DNA of 64,000 nucleotides from Podospora anserina (taxonomy: Eukaryota), in NCBI GenBank assembly GCA_017654855.1, contig CM030332.1, positions 2,356,001 through 2,420,000 of the forward strand, read 5' to 3'. Numbering within the stretch: the first letter of the stretch is position 1; the number at the start of each line of letters is the position of its first letter. A model generated the notes under the pieces. The model saw only the letters and a program-made list of their open reading frames with translations. It was not told the origin of the DNA and did not search any database. A program made the translations under genes and the position numbers. Shown here piece by piece: positions 13,135-22,892 of the stretch.

Positions 13135-15153
13135 ATGGGACGCAGAAAGATTGAAATCAAGGCCATCAAGGATGACAGAAATCGCTCTGTGTAAGCTATT
13201 CCCGAAAATCCCAGCGCTGCCGAGATCCCGTCGCTGACCATGCAATTCTGGCGCAACAGCACCTTTTTGAAGCGCAAGGGTGGTCTCTTCAAGAAAGCGC
13301 ACGAGTTATCCGTGCTTTGCTCTGTAGATGTGGCCGTGTTCATTTTCGGCAGTAATAAGAAGCTCTACGAGTATTCATCCTGCGACATGCGCGACCTGAT
13401 CACGCGGTACACCTATGTATGTTTCAAATTCCGATCCCCTGTCTTGGAGAGTTTGGCTAACATGTCGCAACAGCACGGCGGTCCAAATGAGCACAAGGGC
13501 CCATCCGACTTCAATGGCGGTGCCGATGACGAGGAGGAGGATGACGAAAACGGCACTCCACCGCAAGGAGACGGGATGGACGCTCCAATGCTCCATCCTC
13601 ACTTCCAGGCGCAACCTCAGTTCCCCCCACACATCAGACACCACACTCCATCAGCGTCACCTCCTATTCCAAATGGCATGTTCGGCCCAGGGCCTCGAGG
13701 CCATACTCCTCAGCCTCCTCAGATGGGATCGCGGCCATCATCACGCAATGACATCCGAAGAATGGGACCAATGGGTGGTCCTCAAGTTGGTCCGCAAGGC
13801 CCTCCCCCTCAGGCAGTGAACGGATATGCTTTCATGCCCCAGCCAGCTATCTACAACCCTCATAATGCACCCAATATGCCTCCTAATGCTTCTCATGGCC
13901 TGCCACCGCAATATCCTTACCCTGGCCCTCCACCGCACCCGCAACAAATGCAACAATTTGCCGAAGAGCGAAGAAGATCGTCTGTTCCGCCCAACTACCC
14001 ACCGCAGGCACAAGGGCCACCAGCACCGCGTCACTCAGTGTCTCCCCCTCGACCTCAGGCACCACAGCTGCCTCACCAATTGCCAGCTCAGCTTCCTCCT
14101 CGCACTATGCCATCACACATGGTCCCTAGTCCGCCGCAACCACAGATGCATCCCATGCAGAGCCCACCTCAACCTCAGCAACACCTGGCCCCTCCACCAT
14201 CGCACGAACTGCCACAGATCCGGCCACCTCCCCAGGAGCCCCAACCGCCAGCCCCTGTAGAGACCATGGCAAAGCCTGAACTTGTCGACAGACCCCGACA
14301 GCCGCCTCTTTTGGACACCGCCATCAAAAAGGCACCACCGCGCAAGGGTGGCAGCATCTTTACGCCTATTGATGAAAACCGATCTATTCTCTCGCAACAC
14401 TTGGCAGCATTTCACCCAGAAATAAAGTCGGAGCCGCAGGGCAACCGATCGCTTTCATTGGACATGGGAAAGAATGGGACCACAAACTCGCCACCACATC
14501 TCCAACGTTCCAACACCCAAGCCCAGCCACAAATAAAGCGAAATGGCTCGCTATCGTCCATCCCCGAGACTGTGTTTACGCCACCGTCCCGGTCCAATAG
14601 TCTGCGCATCGGAAGCATATCTCGGCCACGACTAAAGGTGCAAATCCCCGACGAGTCTGATGGCGGGAGTGCTACGGCCGAATCGGCATCTCCCCGCAAC
14701 ACAACAACCACGACAGATGCCACCTCACAACCCTCGAGGCGACCCGAGTCGGTTGTTCTCCCGCCCCCTTCCCCATCCGCCTCCTCGCTCCTCTCAGCAG
14801 GCGCAACCGGCCCACCGAACCCGTTTGCCCGACCTCCTCCCGCTTCTCACCAAAACAACTCGATGAACATTGATACCCCTGTTTCCGCGCTCCCATCTCG
14901 ATTTATGACGAATGAGTTTCTCCCAAGTCCCAGCAGCTTTTACCCCGAGTGGAACTTTCGTGGAAGTGACAGCAACACGCTGCCCAGTCCACTAAACTTT
15001 GCTACGCCCGTGGTGAGCACCGGGCCATCCTTTCTGAGGGACGACCCGGTCCCGCAGAAGCGGAAAAGCCCCGAGATTAGCGGCAACGGGCACGGGCCTG
15101 AGCAACATGCTGATATTGGCGGAGATGCGAAGCGTGTAAAGGTTGATTCTTGA
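13135..15153 (+). CDS. RLM1: MEF2-type MADS-box transcription factor (Rlm1/RlmA-like); exons 13135-13190, 13260-13416, 13474-15153
   Basis: MGRRKIEIKAIKDDRNRSV|TFLKRKGGLFKKAHELSVLCSVDVAVFIF MADS box; Pro/Gln-rich middle; RPRLKVQIP MAPK-docking-like motif; TPVSALPSRF...LPSPSSFY C-terminal motifs. Confidence 0.9.
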
Positions 15154-16585
15154 GCGGCAAGGCATGTTTGAACATCCTTTCATGTACCATACTTTGTGTT
15201 TTTCATTCTTCTTGTTGTTGGATACCGTGTAACCCGGTTTTTTTCTTTTCTTTTTATCTTCTTCTATCAGACTTATTCTATTGTAGGGTTCTACTCTGTA
15301 TTTGGCGGGCATTTTCAAGGCGTTTATTTGTATTGTTAAAACTGGACGCGACAGGACAGGCTATGATGAGATTTGGGGAGGATATGGATGAATCGCAATG
15401 AACGATTATCTAGCGTTTTTTGTACTTGGGGAAAATTATGTTTCTAGCGGTGATTTAGGGGTGTGGTATAAAGAAGATATTTTGCAACTTGGAGCTTTAC
15501 ATGCAAGGCCTTTCCCCTTTTGACAGCGAGGATGAAGTGTCGGAGGACTCGGCCGAGGGATGATGTCAGTCCGGTCAAAGCAGCAGTGAGGCAGAAGTTG
15601 AGGCTCTGTGGGGAGCTCTGACCACCGAGCAGGGGAAGCATGGCCTAGACAACTGACCCGACTGTACCCTGAAGCATATCGGAGATGGGGGCGGAGCAGA
15701 AGTTGCGAGCCGTAGGGCTGATTGGGGCGCCAGGGACGGGGAGCTGCGGATGATATGTCTACCGCTTAGCTACACCTTACTTAGCTAAGCTGTTGTTCAA
15801 CTCGTCGCATGGCCTACTCCTCCACCTGAGTCTACCGGGTGGGGTGGTTGTTACCTACCTACCTATCTACCTTGGAGGGTAAATGGGATGGGTAGTATGT
15901 ACGTACAATCGTATATGCCGTCGGATTGATAGTCCAATATGCAAGTAGAGAGTGTGGAAGGGTGGGGGACACATACTACAACGATCCCGGGGAGGTCGGC
16001 GGCTCTGCGGGCGATGGGGTGGGTGGTGGTGGTGGAGTGGGGATGGGTGTTGCTAAAAATAAATCTATTTTTGGTGATGTGTGTGGTTGGGTGGAATGAT
16101 TTACCTGCAGGTGTGAGGTTGCGGCGCACAGCAGCAGCATGTATGCGAGCGAGTGCACATACACATGCCGGTTGGGAGGGAAGGCGGCGGCGGCGGCGGT
16201 GGCGGTGGGAAGACCACGTGGAATTTTGGCTGGGATTGGGATGGATACCTAGAAAGGTAAGCAAGTGGAAGAAGGGTTGTGGATTGTTCGGTGTGCTGAT
16301 CACAGACAGACATAAAGAGTTGTGACAAGAGTAGTGTGAGGGGAGCACGGCATTTTTTTGGGAGGGGAAGGGGATAAAAGTTATGAACTGTTAACAATGC
16401 TGCCGTCTAAACCTCACAGTATCTTCACTGCGGGGAGTATATATGACCGTTTTTGGTCGATATTCCCAACCTTCCTTTTCCTCATCATCATCATCAACAA
16501 CAATTTACTTATACTCATAACCACAGCCCGATTACTAACAACTCCAGTACTAACCCCTAGATCTCACACCACATCATAACCAAAG

Positions 16586-16812
16586 ATGTGCCTCTACCAT
16601 CAACACTAGTGGCGGTGCGGACACAACGTTAGGGGGCCTCCCCGTCTACTACGACGGTGCGACCGGTGGGCTGCCCGGGAGGCTCATGGAGGCGATGATT
16701 ACTCTGCGGTAACTTCAAGAGGGTGAGGTGGGTTGGTTCTTGTGATAAATGCATGAGGGCGAACCCCGATTTACCCAAGCTAACCGTACTAATTAAGTGG
16801 GTGAGAAGGTAA
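16586..16812 (+). pseudogene. Small Cys-rich 'MC' family member, copy 1 (in-frame TAG at codon 8 plus a frameshift)
   Basis: MCLYHQH*WRCGHNVRGPPRLLRRC.. then, in a shifted frame, LCGNFKRVRWVGSCDKC..VRR*; C2/C11/C25 spacing identical to copies 2 and 3; AAGATGTG start context. Confidence 0.7.
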
Positions 16813-17474
16813 GTGCAGAGTCTCCCTGGAGGAGACGTCTATGTTGATGTACTTAATATATTCTATCTTTTTTTCACTAGAAAATATGGACCTGATTAAT
16901 TGCTTGTTAAGATGTGAAAGTGACTACTGATAGACGTTCAATCAATGTGCTTGTGTGCGCGCATGCTGGTCTTCCATTGGGATAGTTTTTCGTCCCACCG
17001 CTAGGTTGAGGTTGATGATGTAATTTCGAGGGGTTTGCTCTTGCTGCGACGAAACTTACCTCAAATGAATTAACAGATACACATGAGAGTGTGATCAATC
17101 ACGGACTCGAACTGGGAGCAAGACGGTGCGTATGGTTGGGATTGAGGACAAAGGATGCTGTTTGTTCCACGCGCAAGGGCACAAAGGACGGAAGAACAGG
17201 GACAATGCTATTGAAGCGGACTGGACAACACAATTATGCAATGGAAGTAGCGCGAGCAATACATTGTTCACAAGTCAGTAGAATTACCCGCTTGAAGCAG
17301 ACTAAACAACCTAATTATCCCCAACTCCCCAAGACAGTATAAAAGCCCCCTTCATCCCTCTCTCCTCTCCATCCATTTTCCTCATCATCAGCATCAAAAA
17401 CTTACTTAAATAGCCCTCCTCACTCTCACTTTGCAGACATTACCCAACAAAACCCCCCAACATCATCACCCAAG

Positions 17475-17675
17475 ATGTGCCTCTGGGAGAAACTTTACTG
17501 CCACTGCGGCATCCCTTCTGATAAGCCTCAAAAGCTTATCATGAACTGCCACTCCTATTCCACTACTGGCCGCTGCAGCGGCGATACGGTCAGACCCAAG
17601 AATAGGGGCTGGCTCTGCTCGAGGTGCCAGGAGATTGAGGATTTGGCTAGGCAGATGGGAAGTTGGAGGGTGTAA
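17475..17675 (+). CDS. Small Cys-rich 'MC' protein, copy 2 (66 aa, intact)
   Basis: C2-C11G-C25-C34-C48xxC51; TATA (17337-17345), TTTTCCTCATCATCA (17376-17390), CAAGATG context, AATAAA downstream. Confidence 0.75.
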   Translation: MCLWEKLYCHCGIPSDKPQKLIMNCHSYSTTGRCSGDTVRPKNRGWLCSRCQEIEDLARQMGSWRV

Positions 17676-18261
17676 GGAGTCTGCAAAAGTGAGAGCGCTG
17701 GGGAGATAAGTCCGGAACGGAATCTGGGTAGGTAAGTGGAAACTTCCCTGGTGGAGGTTGTTGCTGATCATACATACATTAATAAAATAATTTTTTTTTC
17801 CTGTGAAAACTTCAAGTTATCGTTGGTTTCAAATTTCGAAAGTGAGTGAGTGAGTTTTATTTGATATACAAGCTACCTACCATCTACCTGACTGGCATAT
17901 TTTGGACGAAAGGAAGTATGAAATTGCTACAGAAAGATAGGCTTTAAGAGATAAATAAGCAGCCAGCCAAGACACATTGAATGGTTTTATCCTATCCATC
18001 GAGCAACTGTGTCTCTCGAAGCAGGCTAAAGAGAGAGATCTGCCTGCTGGTTGGTTATCCATCTTTTACATGACTGACTTATTTGTGTGTGTGTATGAGG
18101 CACAACGAATGCCCTATCTTCCTTCTTTCTATCCATGATTTATTTGACAGACAGGAGTGAGTGCCCAAAGTGAAAACGAAGAAGACCTTCACGATGGTCG
18201 TCTCTCAGCATTGATCGTTCGACCAGCCAGCTTCGAGATATCCATTCTTAGCAAACATGTG

Positions 18262-18321
18262 TACATACATACATACATACATACATACATACATACATAC
18301 ATACATACATACATACATACA

Positions 18322-18350
<29 letters not shown>
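18262..18350. repeat. (TACA)n tetranucleotide microsatellite, about 22 units
   Basis: Perfect tandem ACAT run seen directly. Confidence 0.97.
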
Positions 18351-18357
<7 letters not shown>

Positions 18358-18656
18358 CATACCTTTTACCATTTCAGCATGAGAGTAGTCTGTCTATCTT
18401 ATTTCCCAATTTTCTCTTTGTTACAGGAACAAGAAATTGTCATCAAATGGCCTATTCCAGTGGCTTTGTTCTTGTAGTAGGACCCCGAGGGCTGAATTGT
18501 TTCAGCGCTTCCGAGTCCAAGGGAAATATCATTCATATACAATTTCACACCGTTAATGCACGTAATCAAGATTAGAAAGCAAAATAAATGGGGCTTATAA
18601 AAGAGTCTGTATTATTCTCACCAACAAAATCACCACCAGGGAGATTTGAATCTCAC

Positions 18657-18842
18657 TTACCTCCTTTCCACATACCTATACTCATGTCTATGAGCTCGGC
18701 AAGGACAATCAAACGTCCTCTGTTCGATTCTAAGGATTTCACAGCTCATACCAATGTGATAAAGGCGGCAGCGATTAACCAAAACGGGCGCAGGATGAAT
18801 GGGGCACCCGCAAAGCCAGAGACCCTGTCGGAAGAGACACAT
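18657..18842 (-). CDS. Small Cys-rich 'MC' protein, copy 3 (61 aa, intact)
   Basis: MCLFRQGLWLCGC..C25..C34..C48xxH51, same spacing as copy 2; true start is the CAAGATG at 18842 inside the longer listed ORF; TATA and TTTTCTCATCATCA upstream on the minus strand. Confidence 0.75.
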   Translation of the reverse strand: MCLFRQGLWLCGCPIHPAPVLVNRCRLYHIGMSCEILRIEQRTFDCPCRAHRHEYRYVERR

Positions 18843-19385
18843 CTTGGGTGATGTGAGGTTGGTAATAGTTTTGAAGGTTGTGAGTTGTGAAGGTTTGTGT
18901 AAGTAGTTAGTTGTGTGGGTTTGTTGCGTTGATGATGAGAAAATATTGACGAGCTCATGGGAGGGCGCCTGGCTTTTTATATAGTGATAAGAAGGGGAGA
19001 CAGAACGGAAACAATCCCATTGTCTTCTTTCACTGGCTTTGTTCACCTCGATACTCCTCTGTTTATAACAATTTTCGTCTCAGCACAGCACCAGTCTAGT
19101 ACTCAGCCAAACCCATAGTTCAGAAACCACTTCACACATCAACTTCGATCAATCCCATCATAATCAAAACAATGCCCCCCTTCCATCTTCAACACCATTG
19201 CTCTTCCAATAATCACATTATACAGACTCCAATGCCACACAATCTCTCCTGTATTTAAACCCTTCCCTCCCTCTCTCCTCAGCAACTTTCCTCATCATCA
19301 TCATCATCATCATCAGATCAAACCACCGAACCAAACACACACACATACCACCACTTCAAACTAACAACCCAAAACAACAAACAAG

Positions 19386-19575
19386 ATGTGCCAATACGAG
19401 CAATTCTCTCTACCACCTCTGCGGCTGCAAGGACGCGGCTGAGGTCCGCATCGAGACCTGTCAGTTAGTCCAAGATGGCGGTGCATGCTCTGATCTGAAG
19501 CCGCTGGTGATCTCCTTTGTTCCTCCTCCGGCAACCTGTGATTACCACGAGGTCTCCTCTGATGATGAGTACTAG
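19386..19575 (+). pseudogene. Small Cys-rich 'MC' family member, copy 4 (frameshift in a CT run after codon 7)
   Basis: MCQYEQF/[tctc]/YHLCGCKDAAEVRIETCQLVQDGGACSDLKPLVISFVPPPATCDYH..*; removing TCTC restores C11-G-C13; same CAAGATGTG context and 5' motif. Confidence 0.7.
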
Positions 19576-20212
19576 TGGATCCCTCGTTGAGCGCAGCCTC
19601 TTGCTCATTACTTGGTGGGTAAATGGCTCTCCTGGAAGGTAAGTAAGGCGAGTGAGTGTTTGATAAAAGGTAAGGTGTGGTGAGGTTGTTGATGCCTGGA
19701 GCATCAATAAACCAAGACATATAATTTCAATACATTTTTTAACAAAACCCTAGACTGCTATATCTCTTTTCGTGCTTGTATTGTGATCCTGTGGTTTAAC
19801 TGTTACTGCAACAGGCAGATGTGTAGCTTTGTGCACTTTCACCTCTTTCGAGATACACCTGCTCCACCTAGGTACATGTGTACAATTCATTCAGTGTTAT
19901 TTTCTCTCATTATACATGTAAAACTCAACCACCATATCTAGTTCTCAGCTTGCCTTTGTACAATAAAGACACCAACCCCTGACGCCATTCCATATGCGTT
20001 TATGACAAGTCATATCCCAAACTTATATACAACGTATATGACTCTAAAAAGCCGCGCCACATCTTCCAAATTATCATCCAATTATGACTCAAATCCAAGA
20101 TCCGAGAGCCGACCGGCCTGCCCCTTTTGAGGTCCGGCAGTCCAACCTTCTCCAGCCAAGACGTTCGTTCCATAACCCGGTCCACCCTTCAAAGATCTGT
20201 CTCGGGAACCCC

Positions 20213-21127
20213 TTAATCAACCTTCCTAACCCCCAATCCACTCCCCTCCCCAACCCCCCTCCCAAGCTCCATATCCCTCCCATCAACCCTAGAATACTGC
20301 CCCCTATCCCTCCTATTCCTCCCCACCGTGCCCCTCTCACTCCTCCTGTTCCTCCCCATCACATTCCCCAAATCGATCCTCCTCACCCCCCTATTACAGC
20401 ACAACGTGCTCATCACAATCGCCATCAAGAAAAACGCGACCGTGGGCAGCGCCACATACAACACCTGATCGTCCGCCGGGTGCCTCTTCCCATCACTCTT
20501 ATTCGGCCCCTTCTTCGGCTTGACAATCTGCACCGTCGGTCCCTGATGCCATTCCGCGGGCGAGCCATCCTCCGGCAGCGCCGCCATCCTCAGGGTTATC
20601 GTCGTTGGTGTGTTCTGCTTGAAGTGTTTCGCCTTGTTTCCCGGTTTTTCATTCCACAATGGGTTGGCGTTGATGAGGTCTTGGGTAATGGACCACTGGT
20701 AAAAACCCCACGCGCACGAGATTTCGCCAGAGTCAAAGGCTTGGTGGGTGTCGCTTTCGGGGGTGAGGTAAAACCCGATGATTTTGACCGTGTGGTTTGC
20801 TTTCTCGTGGGTGTGGCCTTTGGAGAAGAAGGCCGGGTCCCAGGTGATGTACTTGAGGACGCCGGGGTTGAAGGTTTCGTTGTGTTTGGGGAGGCAGAAG
20901 GGTTTGTAATCGCCGTCGAGGTTGTGGCAGACGGCGAATTCGTGACCGGCGAGCTTGGTGGTGTCGATGGCGGGAGGGGCGTCGTTGTCGGTGGGAGGGG
21001 GGACGAGGTCGGCGTCGATGGGTTGACGGGGCGCAAGAGCGTTCGGGTTTTCTGGGCCGGGAAGAGCTGATGCTGTGCCTAGCACGGCCAGCCAGAGGGC
21101 TGACCGGATGAGGTTAGGCGAAACCAT
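20213..21127 (-). CDS. Secretory-pathway single-pass membrane protein, Psg1/YKL077W(DUF4448)-like
   Basis: Signal peptide, C..PFCLP..YITWDPAFF luminal motif, C-terminal TM (VLYVALPTVAFFLMAIVMSTLCC) and basic cytosolic tail; family assignment from recalled motif similarity. Confidence 0.65.
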   Translation of the reverse strand: MVSPNLIRSALWLAVLGTASALPGPENPNALAPRQPIDADLVPPPTDNDAPPAIDTTKLAGHEFAVCHNLDGDYKPFCLPKHNETFNPGVLKYITWDPAFFSKGHTHEKANHTVKIIGFYLTPESDTHQAFDSGEISCAWGFYQWSITQDLINANPLWNEKPGNKAKHFKQNTPTTITLRMAALPEDGSPAEWHQGPTVQIVKPKKGPNKSDGKRHPADDQVLYVALPTVAFFLMAIVMSTLCCNRGVRRIDLGNVMGRNRRSERGTVGRNRRDRGQYSRVDGRDMELGRGVGEGSGLGVRKVD

Positions 21128-21616
21128 CTGTATCCTTTGCGTGTGTGATGTTGCTCGGATGCCTCGGAGCTTTCTTCGTTCAAGCTCTTAGAGAGAAGAA
21201 GAGGCCAGACAGTTGAGTTGAAGGGGTAAGTAGGAAGCCGAGTAAGACACTGCTGGTCGTCTTTCCAGTCAACTGAGTGGACAGAGAAGGCCGTTGAAAA
21301 AGCAGAGGTTCAAGAAGGAAAAAGGAATGGATAACCGACGAGATATCGGCCCGGCGCAACCTTCAGCCCTCGAACTGGAAGCGGCAATTTTGGAAGTCCC
21401 GGAGCTTCCCGCCGTCCGTTGATGGTGAACTTGAGACAGGGAGCTCCCGGCGGACAAAAGCTGCATGAAATCGCGCTAGAAGGCCTGCCAAGCCGGCATG
21501 CCAAGGTCGACAAAGCAGGGGTTCCGGCATCTTAACGCCTCGGCATCTCAGCCTCCACAGACAACACCATGTCGATATTGATGGTTCACTGTACAGAACG
21601 TCTCATTTGCTACCAT

Positions 21617-22892
21617 CTAAGAAACAGTGTTCTTGGCCACGATTCCCCTCGCAAACTCTCCAAAGGTAATATGCTGCTCCATGTCAACCTCCTCACCCAG
21701 GTTCGGCTGGGTAAAAACGGCAAGCGTGTTGCGCGCAATCCGGCCATCGCTCATGGAAGCACGAGCTCCCCGTACAAAATGCGGCACAGCCTTGAACTTG
21801 CCCTCAGTAATCCTCTCCAATGCCTCGCCCGTCTGGAAAGCAATACAGTCGCGGGGAATCTTGACCTGGACCGTTTGCCCAGTACGAGACTTGATGTACA
21901 AACCAGATGCCGGGTCAGGGGACGCATCAAGTTCGGGAATAGGTGCCAACTTCAGCGGCTTGCTGTCGGCCAAAGTTTGTTCAAAAGCCGGTGCGACCGC
22001 TGGCGTCTTGGCTTCGTCGACAAACATGGCCGAAGTCAAACCGGTCAAACAGCCGTGGTCCAGATGGGTAGCACACCAGTCATCCTCGTCGCCGCCCTCG
22101 CCATTCGCGATTTCGCTCGCCTTTGTCGGCGCAGGAGGGGCGTTGGCGGGGTCCTCGGGGAAGTAGTGTAACAGGCGAGCCTTTGTCGTGGTCGAGGTGC
22201 TCACAACCTTTTCCAAGTAACCGTTGGGATAACCGGCAATTTCCTTCTCGGCGAACCTATCGCACGCTCTAGCCACCAAAACGGCAACGTCAATGATCAG
22301 ACGGCAAAGATCCTCGACAGAGTTTTTGAAGCCGGGTAGCGTCGCATCATCCGGCCAGATGTTGGGCGAGAGATACTCAGGGAAGTTATCAGTGTTGAAC
22401 TCCTCGGTCGGCGCTGCGCAAGACAGCTTTGGGTCAACATAGAAAGCACAGTTGGCATAGAAAGAGCCCTTTAATGTGTCGACCTGGCCGTTCTTGAGGG
22501 TTTCCTTTCCAAGGGACCATCCGGTAAGGTACTTGGCCTTTTCATTCTCGAGTTTATCTGTGGCTGGTCAACTTTTTGCTCATAGCCGCCATGACCCTTC
22601 ACATGTAACCTACCCAGCTCAGACTTGGGGAGGTTTCCAAGGTAAGACGAATAGGAGAGGGCATGATGCCTCAGACTCGCAAACTCGGGTGGTACATCTT
22701 TGACAACCAAGATACCCAGAGAATCCGGGCCGAATGCTTGCTGGAGCTTCTCAAACGACACCGTTCCTAGAGATTTTTACACATCAGCGATTGCACTTAC
22801 ACAGATCACCCCGCAAAGTGATCCCTGGACCCTGACTTACCGTCCTTTAGCTCCTGTAGGGAGACAGTCACAGCCTGAGCAATAGGGGCCAT
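21617..22892 (-). CDS. 2-oxoglutarate/Fe(II)-dependent oxygenase (IPNS/clavaminate-synthase-like); exons 22892-22841, 22766-22614, 22557-21617
   Basis: AFGPDSLGILVV, GWSLGKETL..KGSFYAN, RLLHYFP, HxD (WCATHLDHG), distal H (AVPHFV) and R..(ARNTLAVF). Confidence 0.85.

Follow-up and report, generated by a model that had tools for sequence, protein, structure and literature searches.

The stretch of Podospora anserina DNA analysed here (64,000 nucleotides; assembly GCA_017654855.1, contig CM030332.1, positions 2,356,001 to 2,420,000; hereafter the window, with positions counted from its first letter) holds, at 16394-19739, four paralogous units of ~450-530 bp each, three on the plus strand and one on the minus strand. 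Each is built around a short Cys-rich open reading frame (ORF), and since all four copies start with Met-Cys we refer to the encoded proteins as the MC family. Our favored reading, to which we assign a probability of about 0.65, is that an intronless mini-gene of this filamentous ascomycete gave rise long ago to a tandem cluster of four paralogues, that copies 2 and 3 are still coding, and that the ancestral product was a non-secreted Cys-scaffold protein, presumably metal-binding. Copies 1 and 4 would have lost their frame late and would now be transcribed pseudogenes.

Layout and paralogy of the four units

Alignment of all four units showed that the paralogy spans their full length, not the start alone. 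The units have a common order of parts: TATA-like box, CT-rich leader, start context, short Cys-rich frame, 3' element, GYTGAT box and AATAAA-like signal (Table 1). Each would thereby carry its own promoter, leader, start context and 3' untranslated region (UTR). The leader TTCCTCATCATCA is matched exactly in three of the four units, and the start context reads CA(T/A)CA(C/A)(C/A)(C/A)AAG-ATG-TG(C/T). Its core, AAGATGTGY, occurs in the window at 16583(+), 17472(+), 19383(+) and 18845(-), and at one unrelated site, 22985(-); these five matches compare with 1.12 expected, and five were reached in 1 of 100 shuffles. The 3' element, AGGTAAGTG-(4-12 nt)-YCCCTGGWGG, occurs three times versus 0.00 expected, the unit 4 version being rearranged. 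When each unit was left out in turn, nhmmer recovered the omitted one with E 4.4e-9 (unit 1), 4.2e-20 (unit 2), 7.4e-7 (unit 3) and 5.8e-12 (unit 4).

No further unit was found in the 64-kb window by this leave-one-out search, the sole other match having E 4.1, and neither a protein profile nor a regular expression for the scaffold found another family member in its six frames. A fifth copy upstream, at 15860-16390, was considered and rejected: there are weak repeats there, but nothing in nhmmer or hmmsearch. The original prediction had placed four starts at 16586+, 17475+, 18842- and 19386+, two of them in intact copies (2 and 3) and two in broken ones (1 and 4), in mixed orientation between conserved genes. 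The starts are where it put them, reading of the ORFs agrees on which are broken, and the flanking genes are of the SRF/MADS (RLM1-like) type on one side and the Psg1 family on the other.

A cysteine scaffold in intact and broken frames

In copy 2, cysteines stand at residues 2, 9, 11, 25, 34, 48 and 51, and in copy 3 at 2, 11, 13, 25, 34, 46 and 48. Positions 2, 11, 25, 34 and 48 are thus common to both in ungapped register, as is Gly 12 (hypergeometric P = 7e-5 for the five Cys positions), and at position 51 copy 2 has a Cys where copy 3 has a His. Beyond these positions the two proteins have little in common, with 11 of 61 ungapped residues identical and five of the 11 being Cys; the earlier claim of identical Cys spacing amid few other common residues therefore stands. 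Coding in the sense frame of the MC ORFs is supported by the codons, whose comparison shows codon-level constraint on Cys and Gly: G12 is encoded by GGA/GGC/GGG/GGC across the four copies, and C2, C25 and C34 are each coded by TGC or TGT among them.

A hidden Markov model (HMM) of the four peptides, run against 1,835,955,588 representative proteins, gave two matches at E <= 0.001. The first, P0001, corresponds to copy 3 of the window itself, its ORF spuriously extended at the 5' end. The second, P0002, is an 81-aa metagenome protein (E 1.5e-4) of the form C2-x8-CGH-x10-C-x8-C-x12-CxxC, and it is the one Cys-conserving outside homologue that the profile yielded. Copy 2 is nearer to it (33% identity, pairwise E 2e-8) than to copy 3 (27%, E 1e-3). 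The family scaffold M-C2-x8-C-G, C-x8-C, C-x2-(C/H), over ~60-80 aa, is complete in copies 2, 3 and P0002, and in copies 1 and 4 it can be traced across the frame breaks. The ESM Atlas clusters nearest to copy 2 and P0002 are unnamed small Ascomycota proteins (0.87-0.90), which are leads only. A DNA pattern scan for leader, gap and start gave 32 metagenome loci, which we treated as chance because an MC..CG ORF is absent from all of them and the weak nhmmer matches are confined to the pattern region.

Other assemblies contribute two copy 3 variants, P0003 and P0004, in which the ORF is intact and every Cys is kept; both come from a protein collection that records open frames only and is hence biased toward intact ORFs. 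Over sense codons 1-53, the copy 3 substitutions across assemblies comprise three non-synonymous and three synonymous changes, all six being non-synonymous on the antisense strand; this count combines sense and antisense translations from other assemblies, and its numbers are too small for a test.

The two broken copies retain most of the scaffold. In copy 1, frame 0 reads MCLYHQH, a TAG at codon 8, and then WRCGH..C25, and it runs to 16723. The residues C2, C11 and C25 that had been ascribed to this copy are present, and so is the terminal CxxC (SCDKC), but the latter lies in a different frame from the start. In copy 4, MCQYEQF in frame 0 is followed by a frame change after ~7 codons; frame +1 is then open for 62 codons to a TAG at 19573-19575 and holds LYHLCGC..C-x8-C..CDYH, so that the motifs claimed for it (CGC, C-x8-C and CxxH, here CDYH) are present, in frame +1 rather than that of the start. 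Because the scaffold frame is open for 62 codons after a single frame change, the copy 4 ORF appears to have been kept for most of its history. Assembly errors do not account for the lesions, since RNA-derived contigs reproduce them: copy 1 is spanned by contigs of three runs and copy 4 by one contig, with no differing letters or gaps in any of them. The TAA inside AGGTAAGTG, part of the 3' element, terminates copy 3 and closes the copy 1 tail frame. Copy 2 now ends 19 codons short of this TAA but shares its frame. These relations argue that the ancestral ORF ended inside the 3' element.

Repeat-induced point mutation (RIP) is not supported as the cause of the copy 1 lesions, as the substitution spectrum has no C>T/G>A excess (6/26, odd-one-out). 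Unit 1 alone passes the RIP composition thresholds (TpA/ApT 1.06, (CpA+TpG)/(ApC+GpT) 0.94).

Pairwise identity among the units is 52-65% in the leader, 45-57% in the first 45 nt of the coding sequence (CDS), 30-42% in the rest of the CDS and 51-62% in the 3' element. Such low identities, 30-42% over most of the CDS, indicate that the duplications are old, and the few lesions in each of copies 1 and 4 indicate that their ORFs were maintained most of the time and lost late. Ligand residues, start context and UTRs would have been held in place by selection, and the remaining protein would have drifted or diversified. Judged by the age of the duplications, this is not fast gene turnover. To describe the array as undergoing birth and death was therefore an overstatement: after ancient duplication two ORFs were lost late, and their units are still transcribed.

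The ancestral product would have been a non-secreted protein of ~60-85 aa with the pattern M-C2-x8-C11-G-x12/13-C25-x8-C34-x11-13-C-x2-(C/H). Copies 2 and 3 have no hydrophobic N-terminal core of the signal-peptide kind as judged by Kyte-Doolittle means (maximum 12-residue mean in the first 35 residues, 0.53 and 1.26, respectively), and this low hydrophobicity bears out the prediction that a signal peptide is absent. One or two metal sites are suggested by the six conserved Cys together with a His that recurs (CGH or CGC, C/H51). The scaffold would fold around one or two metal ions, most likely zinc, as a small beta-beta-alpha-beta-alpha binding module. Intracellular location, and any binding function, we infer. 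A part in recognition, conflict or a life stage, as the original prediction expected, is conjectural. AlphaFold2 models have the same order of elements in both copies, strand-strand-helix-strand(-helix): E2-8, E20-23, H26-31, E37-43 and H49-60 for copy 2 (predicted local distance difference test score, pLDDT, 77.5; 5-sequence alignment), and E2-9, E20-23, H26-29 and E37-44 for copy 3 (pLDDT 69.7).

No Pfam family reached threshold for the copies or for P0002 (no transposon library was searched, and a larger gene was not tested directly), in keeping with the earlier statement that no known family could be named. FYVE_2 (PF02318) scored 15.4 bits against copy 2 (E 0.022), below its 27.2-bit gathering cut-off, and left copies 3, 4 and P0002 unmatched. 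There was no sequence match in the PDB at E <= 10, and no pertinent described family was found in the open-access literature, supplements aside. The MC proteins are an undescribed, probably non-secreted small-protein family.

Transcription, conserved ends and rival explanations

We looked for transcripts and found RNA-derived contigs over all four units, with unit 1 covered in 4/4 runs, unit 2 in 2/4, unit 3 in 1/4 and unit 4 in 2/4. The records of these runs (X1, X4, X7 and X13) do not state RNA; that they are RNA follows from the contigs, which splice out two GT..AG introns of the neighboring MADS gene, one in 3 and one in 4 of the 4 runs. The contigs give neither strand nor expression level. 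The spacers 16976-17259 and 17828-18395 are without contig cover, as are units 2-4 in X7 and X13 and unit 3 in X4, from which we draw no conclusion. In X4, presumed adapter remnants differ between the left ends of the unit 2 contig and the minus-strand Psg1-gene contig; this fits plus-strand unit 2 RNA, weakly, if the library was dUTP-stranded, as we assume. The unit 1 contigs begin at 16364 (two runs), 16304 and 16412, upstream of the TATA-like box at 16438, and the unit 1 transcript thus takes in a further ORF of 60 aa (16397-16579) that resembles a translation of the low-complexity leader.

The 3' element has the look of a splice donor. The consensus 5' splice-site word AGGTAAGT stands at the ancestral stop codon in all four units, with the branch-like GYTGAT box ~35 nt downstream and the poly(A)-like signal beyond it. 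The real introns of the neighboring gene have GTAAGC or GTATGT with branch boxes GCTGAC or GCTAAC. We nevertheless rejected a constitutive intron: the unit 1 element is crossed unspliced by three contigs (X4, X7, X13) and the hypothetical second exons are unrelated between units, though rare isoforms are possible. RNA folding of the element was not significant against shuffles (z -1.6, -0.3, +1.1, -1.4). Rfam 15 gave no match at gathering score, only sub-threshold (CATA)n-repeat hits at 18224-18399, and no tRNA was found. The repeat itself is a (CATA)n microsatellite of ~110 bp (18255-18367) in the spacer between units 2 and 3; its sub-threshold hits are to Rfam microRNAs, e.g., mir-297 at 40.7 bits versus a gathering score of 90.

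Several results weigh against two copies still coding for a metal-binding protein. The CDS is less conserved than the UTRs, a pattern that also fits relaxed constraint. Copy 3 variation is similar in the ORF (2-3 changes/61 codons) and in a translated upstream non-coding stretch (4-5/68). Transcription does not track coding integrity, because the broken copy 1 is the sole unit found in 4/4 runs. Neither intact ORF is present as such in a 15-billion-protein collection, there is one outside homologue only among the 1.84 billion representatives, and k-mer protein searches with copy 2, P0002 and the family alignment gave nothing beyond P0001 and P0002. As for the fold, one of five AlphaFold models per protein is confident (the others 44-64), and the alignments of copies 2 and 3 share sequences. 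A zinc-finger fold was not matched, with a best Foldseek E of 0.28 and a best VIA-align Z of 2.4 (48,161 chains); the best Foldseek rows for the copy model, small ribosomal proteins and PerR-Zn, were non-significant.

These points bring up the alternative that the units act as RNAs, if at all, or are a decaying family without present function, with the MC ORFs as relics. The better conservation of the leader and 3' element, the cover of broken copy 1 in every RNA run, the breakage of two ORFs in four and the nearly neutral look of copy 3 variation are all to its credit. We consider it unlikely, however, given the common Cys register (P = 7e-5), the synonymous codon variation at invariant Cys and Gly, and the scaffold of P0002 at 33% identity, a distance where neutral DNA would no longer align; moreover, Rfam offers no match beyond the sub-threshold microsatellite hits, and the 3' element has no significant RNA fold. 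Real genes could instead lie on the opposite strand, where units 2, 3 and 4 hold the longest ATG-initiated ORFs inside the array (Table 1). Each exceeds its sense ORF, their lengths nominally surpass those in dinucleotide shuffles (p 0.018, 0.087 and 0.012 for units 2, 3 and 4), and a public ORF collection lists two of them as mechanical calls. These ORFs have no mutual similarity (best blastp E 0.18) and no Pfam match, however, and the unit 3 ORF has only 55 aa in two variants from other assemblies. In units 2 and 3 the antisense frame complements the sense frame triplet by triplet, and it stays open as long as the sense frame has no TTA, CTA or TCA codon. With TATA-like boxes and AATAAA signals that point along the sense strand, and the weak fit of the X4 adapter remnants to plus-strand unit 2 RNA, antisense coding is hardly credible and was rejected.

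A different objection concerns the product. Instead of binding metal inside the cell, the MC proteins could be exported or held by disulfides, as leaderless secreted effectors, toxins or peptide precursors; a Cys scaffold with variable spacers, tandem copies and conserved UTRs is typical of secreted families. We regard this as very unlikely: the N-terminus lacks a hydrophobic segment, a Cys is conserved at residue 2, inspection found no processing-site repeats, and His and Cys alternate at the ligand-like positions (C/H51, CGH or CGC), which suits metal better than disulfides. A tandem cluster of sense-strand mini-genes for a non-secreted Cys-scaffold protein remains the reading we prefer.

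Around the array, RNA-derived contigs lie downstream of the MADS gene at 15386-15722, 15415-15789 and 15472-16035. A GC-rich stretch (15386-16035 and 15860-16390) has overlapping ORFs on both strands, among them one of 70 aa (-) with a proline run and a CCCC motif and one of 128 aa (+) with an Arg run; these had no Pfam match at threshold. At 21617-22567 (-) there is a 316-aa open frame with a weak 2OG-Fe(II) oxygenase match (E 0.0073, below cut-off).

Table 1. Features of the MC array and its flanks, in window coordinates
Feature	Position	Strand	Remarks
SRF-type MADS-box (RLM1-like) gene, left flank	13195..15153	+	PF00319, E 4.8e-18
MADS-gene introns	13191-13259, 13417-13473		GT..AG; spliced out in contigs
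Unit 1	16394..16888	+	probable transcribed pseudogene; sequence, alignment, nhmmer, RNA-derived contigs
Unit 1 TATA-like box	16438-16445	+	
Unit 1 leader TTCCTCATCATCA	16478-16490	+	
Unit 1 ATG	16586	+	
Unit 1 TAG (codon 8)	16607-16609	+	
Unit 1 AGGTAAGTG	16807-16815	+	CxxC tail, frame +2, ends at the TAA inside it
Unit 1 contigs	16304-16708 (X1), 16364-16892 (X4), 16364-16979 (X7), 16412-16894 (X13)		
Unit 2	17293..17811	+	intact; sequence, alignment, contig cover
Unit 2 TATAAAAG	17338-17345	+	
Unit 2 leader	17378-17390	+	
Unit 2 ORF	17475-17675	+	66 aa, MCLWEKLYCHCG...
Unit 2 3' element AGGTAAGTG..TCCCTGGTGG	17730-17754	+	AGGTAAGTG at 17730-17738
Unit 2 AATAAA	17782-17787	+	
Unit 2 cover	17411-17705 (contig X4)		low X1 cover in bins 17260-17827
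Unit 2 antisense ORF	17466-17771	-	101 aa
Unit 3	18580..19029	-	intact, inverted; sequence, alignment, contig cover, variants
Unit 3 TATA box	near 18984-18975	-	
Unit 3 leader	18943-18930	-	
Unit 3 ORF	18842-18657	-	61 aa, MCLFRQGLWLCGC...; stop is the TAA inside AGGTAAGTG
Unit 3 3' element	18662-18633	-	AGGTAAGTG at 18662-18654
Unit 3 cover	18680-18963 (bin, X1)		
Unit 3 antisense ORF	18588-18851	+	87 aa
Unit 4	19211..19739	+	probable transcribed pseudogene; sequence, alignment, contig cover
Unit 4 TATTTAAA	19252-19259	+	
Unit 4 leader	19288-19300	+	
Unit 4 ATG	19386	+	
Unit 4 AGGTAAGT	19637-19644	+	
Unit 4 AATAAA	19706-19711	+	
Unit 4 cover	19350-19747 (contig X1)		0 other letters, 0 gaps; low X4 cover
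Unit 4 antisense ORF	19361-19720	-	119 aa
Psg1-family gene, right flank	20213..21187	-	PF14610, E 2e-43

Significance and comparison with known systems

Fungal genome annotation has a blind spot where small ORFs are concerned. Here both intact ORFs are transcribed and bear codon-level constraint, yet neither is on record among 15 billion proteins. From its sequence, the MC family may offer a compact and possibly new metal-binding scaffold. The array is also a clean case of UTRs better conserved than the CDS, and of a splice-donor motif left unspliced in the 3' end of intronless genes. It has no bearing on a long-standing open question; its value is that of a documented example and a testable lead. 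The existence of such an array is no surprise, since lineage-restricted small gene clusters are common in filamentous fungi.

CCCH zinc fingers of the Cth2/TIS11 type are spaced C-x8-C-x5-C-x3-H; the MC scaffold has only the C-x8-C part in common with them, then G-(H/C/I) rather than x5-C-x3-H, and gave no Pfam zf-CCCH match. Twin CX9C (CHCH) proteins of the mitochondrial intermembrane space have two CX9C motifs, each in a helix; the MC spacing is CX8C, with the first pair in predicted strands. Metallothioneins have ~30% Cys in CxC/CxxC clusters, compared with 7 Cys in each of the two intact copies here (66 and 61 aa; ~11%), and again there was no Pfam match. All three were rejected. Zinc-ribbon/Zn(Cys)4 proteins (ribosomal proteins and the PerR structural site) and FYVE_2 are the sole neighbors of the family, all non-significant. 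Secreted Cys-rich peptide families combine a fixed Cys scaffold with variable residues between, tandem duplication and UTRs better conserved than the mature part. The MC family resembles fungal secreted small Cys-rich effectors and toxins in its fixed scaffold, variable surface, tandem paralogues and pseudogenised members. In contrast to them, it has no signal peptide, a Cys at residue 2 and Cys/His alternation.

The conserved Met-Cys start, which P0002 also has, is like that of Cys N-degron substrates of plants and animals. Among fungi, PCO/ADO-like N-terminal cysteine oxidases are reported in chytrids only (PMC10092093), and on that account a ligand role for Cys2 would be more likely than an N-degron.

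A more speculative proposal, to which we give little credence, is that the family's members are microproteins that bind metal inside the cell and evolve fast, that control at the RNA level gates their output, and that their variable surface serves recognition or antagonism between genomes, as the original prediction had proposed. In human cells, mRNAs with an intact 5' splice-site motif in the last exon are reported to stay in the nucleus (PMC4380460, PMC11629677). The array is like those mRNAs in having AGGTAAGT in the 3' end of all four intronless units, unspliced in the unit 1 contigs; unlike them, it is fungal rather than human. If RNA were the point of control, AGGTAAGT would let the U1 small nuclear ribonucleoprotein retain the mRNA within the nucleus or route it to decay until a given stage or stress, and its survival in both pseudogenes would explain their continued transcription.

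In genomic terms, the array is like the Neurospora orphan-gene clusters, which are reported to be small, fast-diverging, lineage-restricted, locally duplicated and clustered (PMC10684091, PMC11628664). Those clusters are described as aggregated near telomeres, beside HET-domain genes; unlike them, the array lies between conserved MADS-box and Psg1 genes, HET neighbors having been sought in the tested flanks. The nearest comparison is with P0002 itself, a singleton from an ENA metagenome contig with neither name nor Pfam match. It has in common with the copies the MCLF start, C2-x8-C11-G-H, C-x8-C and the terminal CxxC, but its interval from C11 to the following Cys is one residue shorter and its acidic tail is longer.

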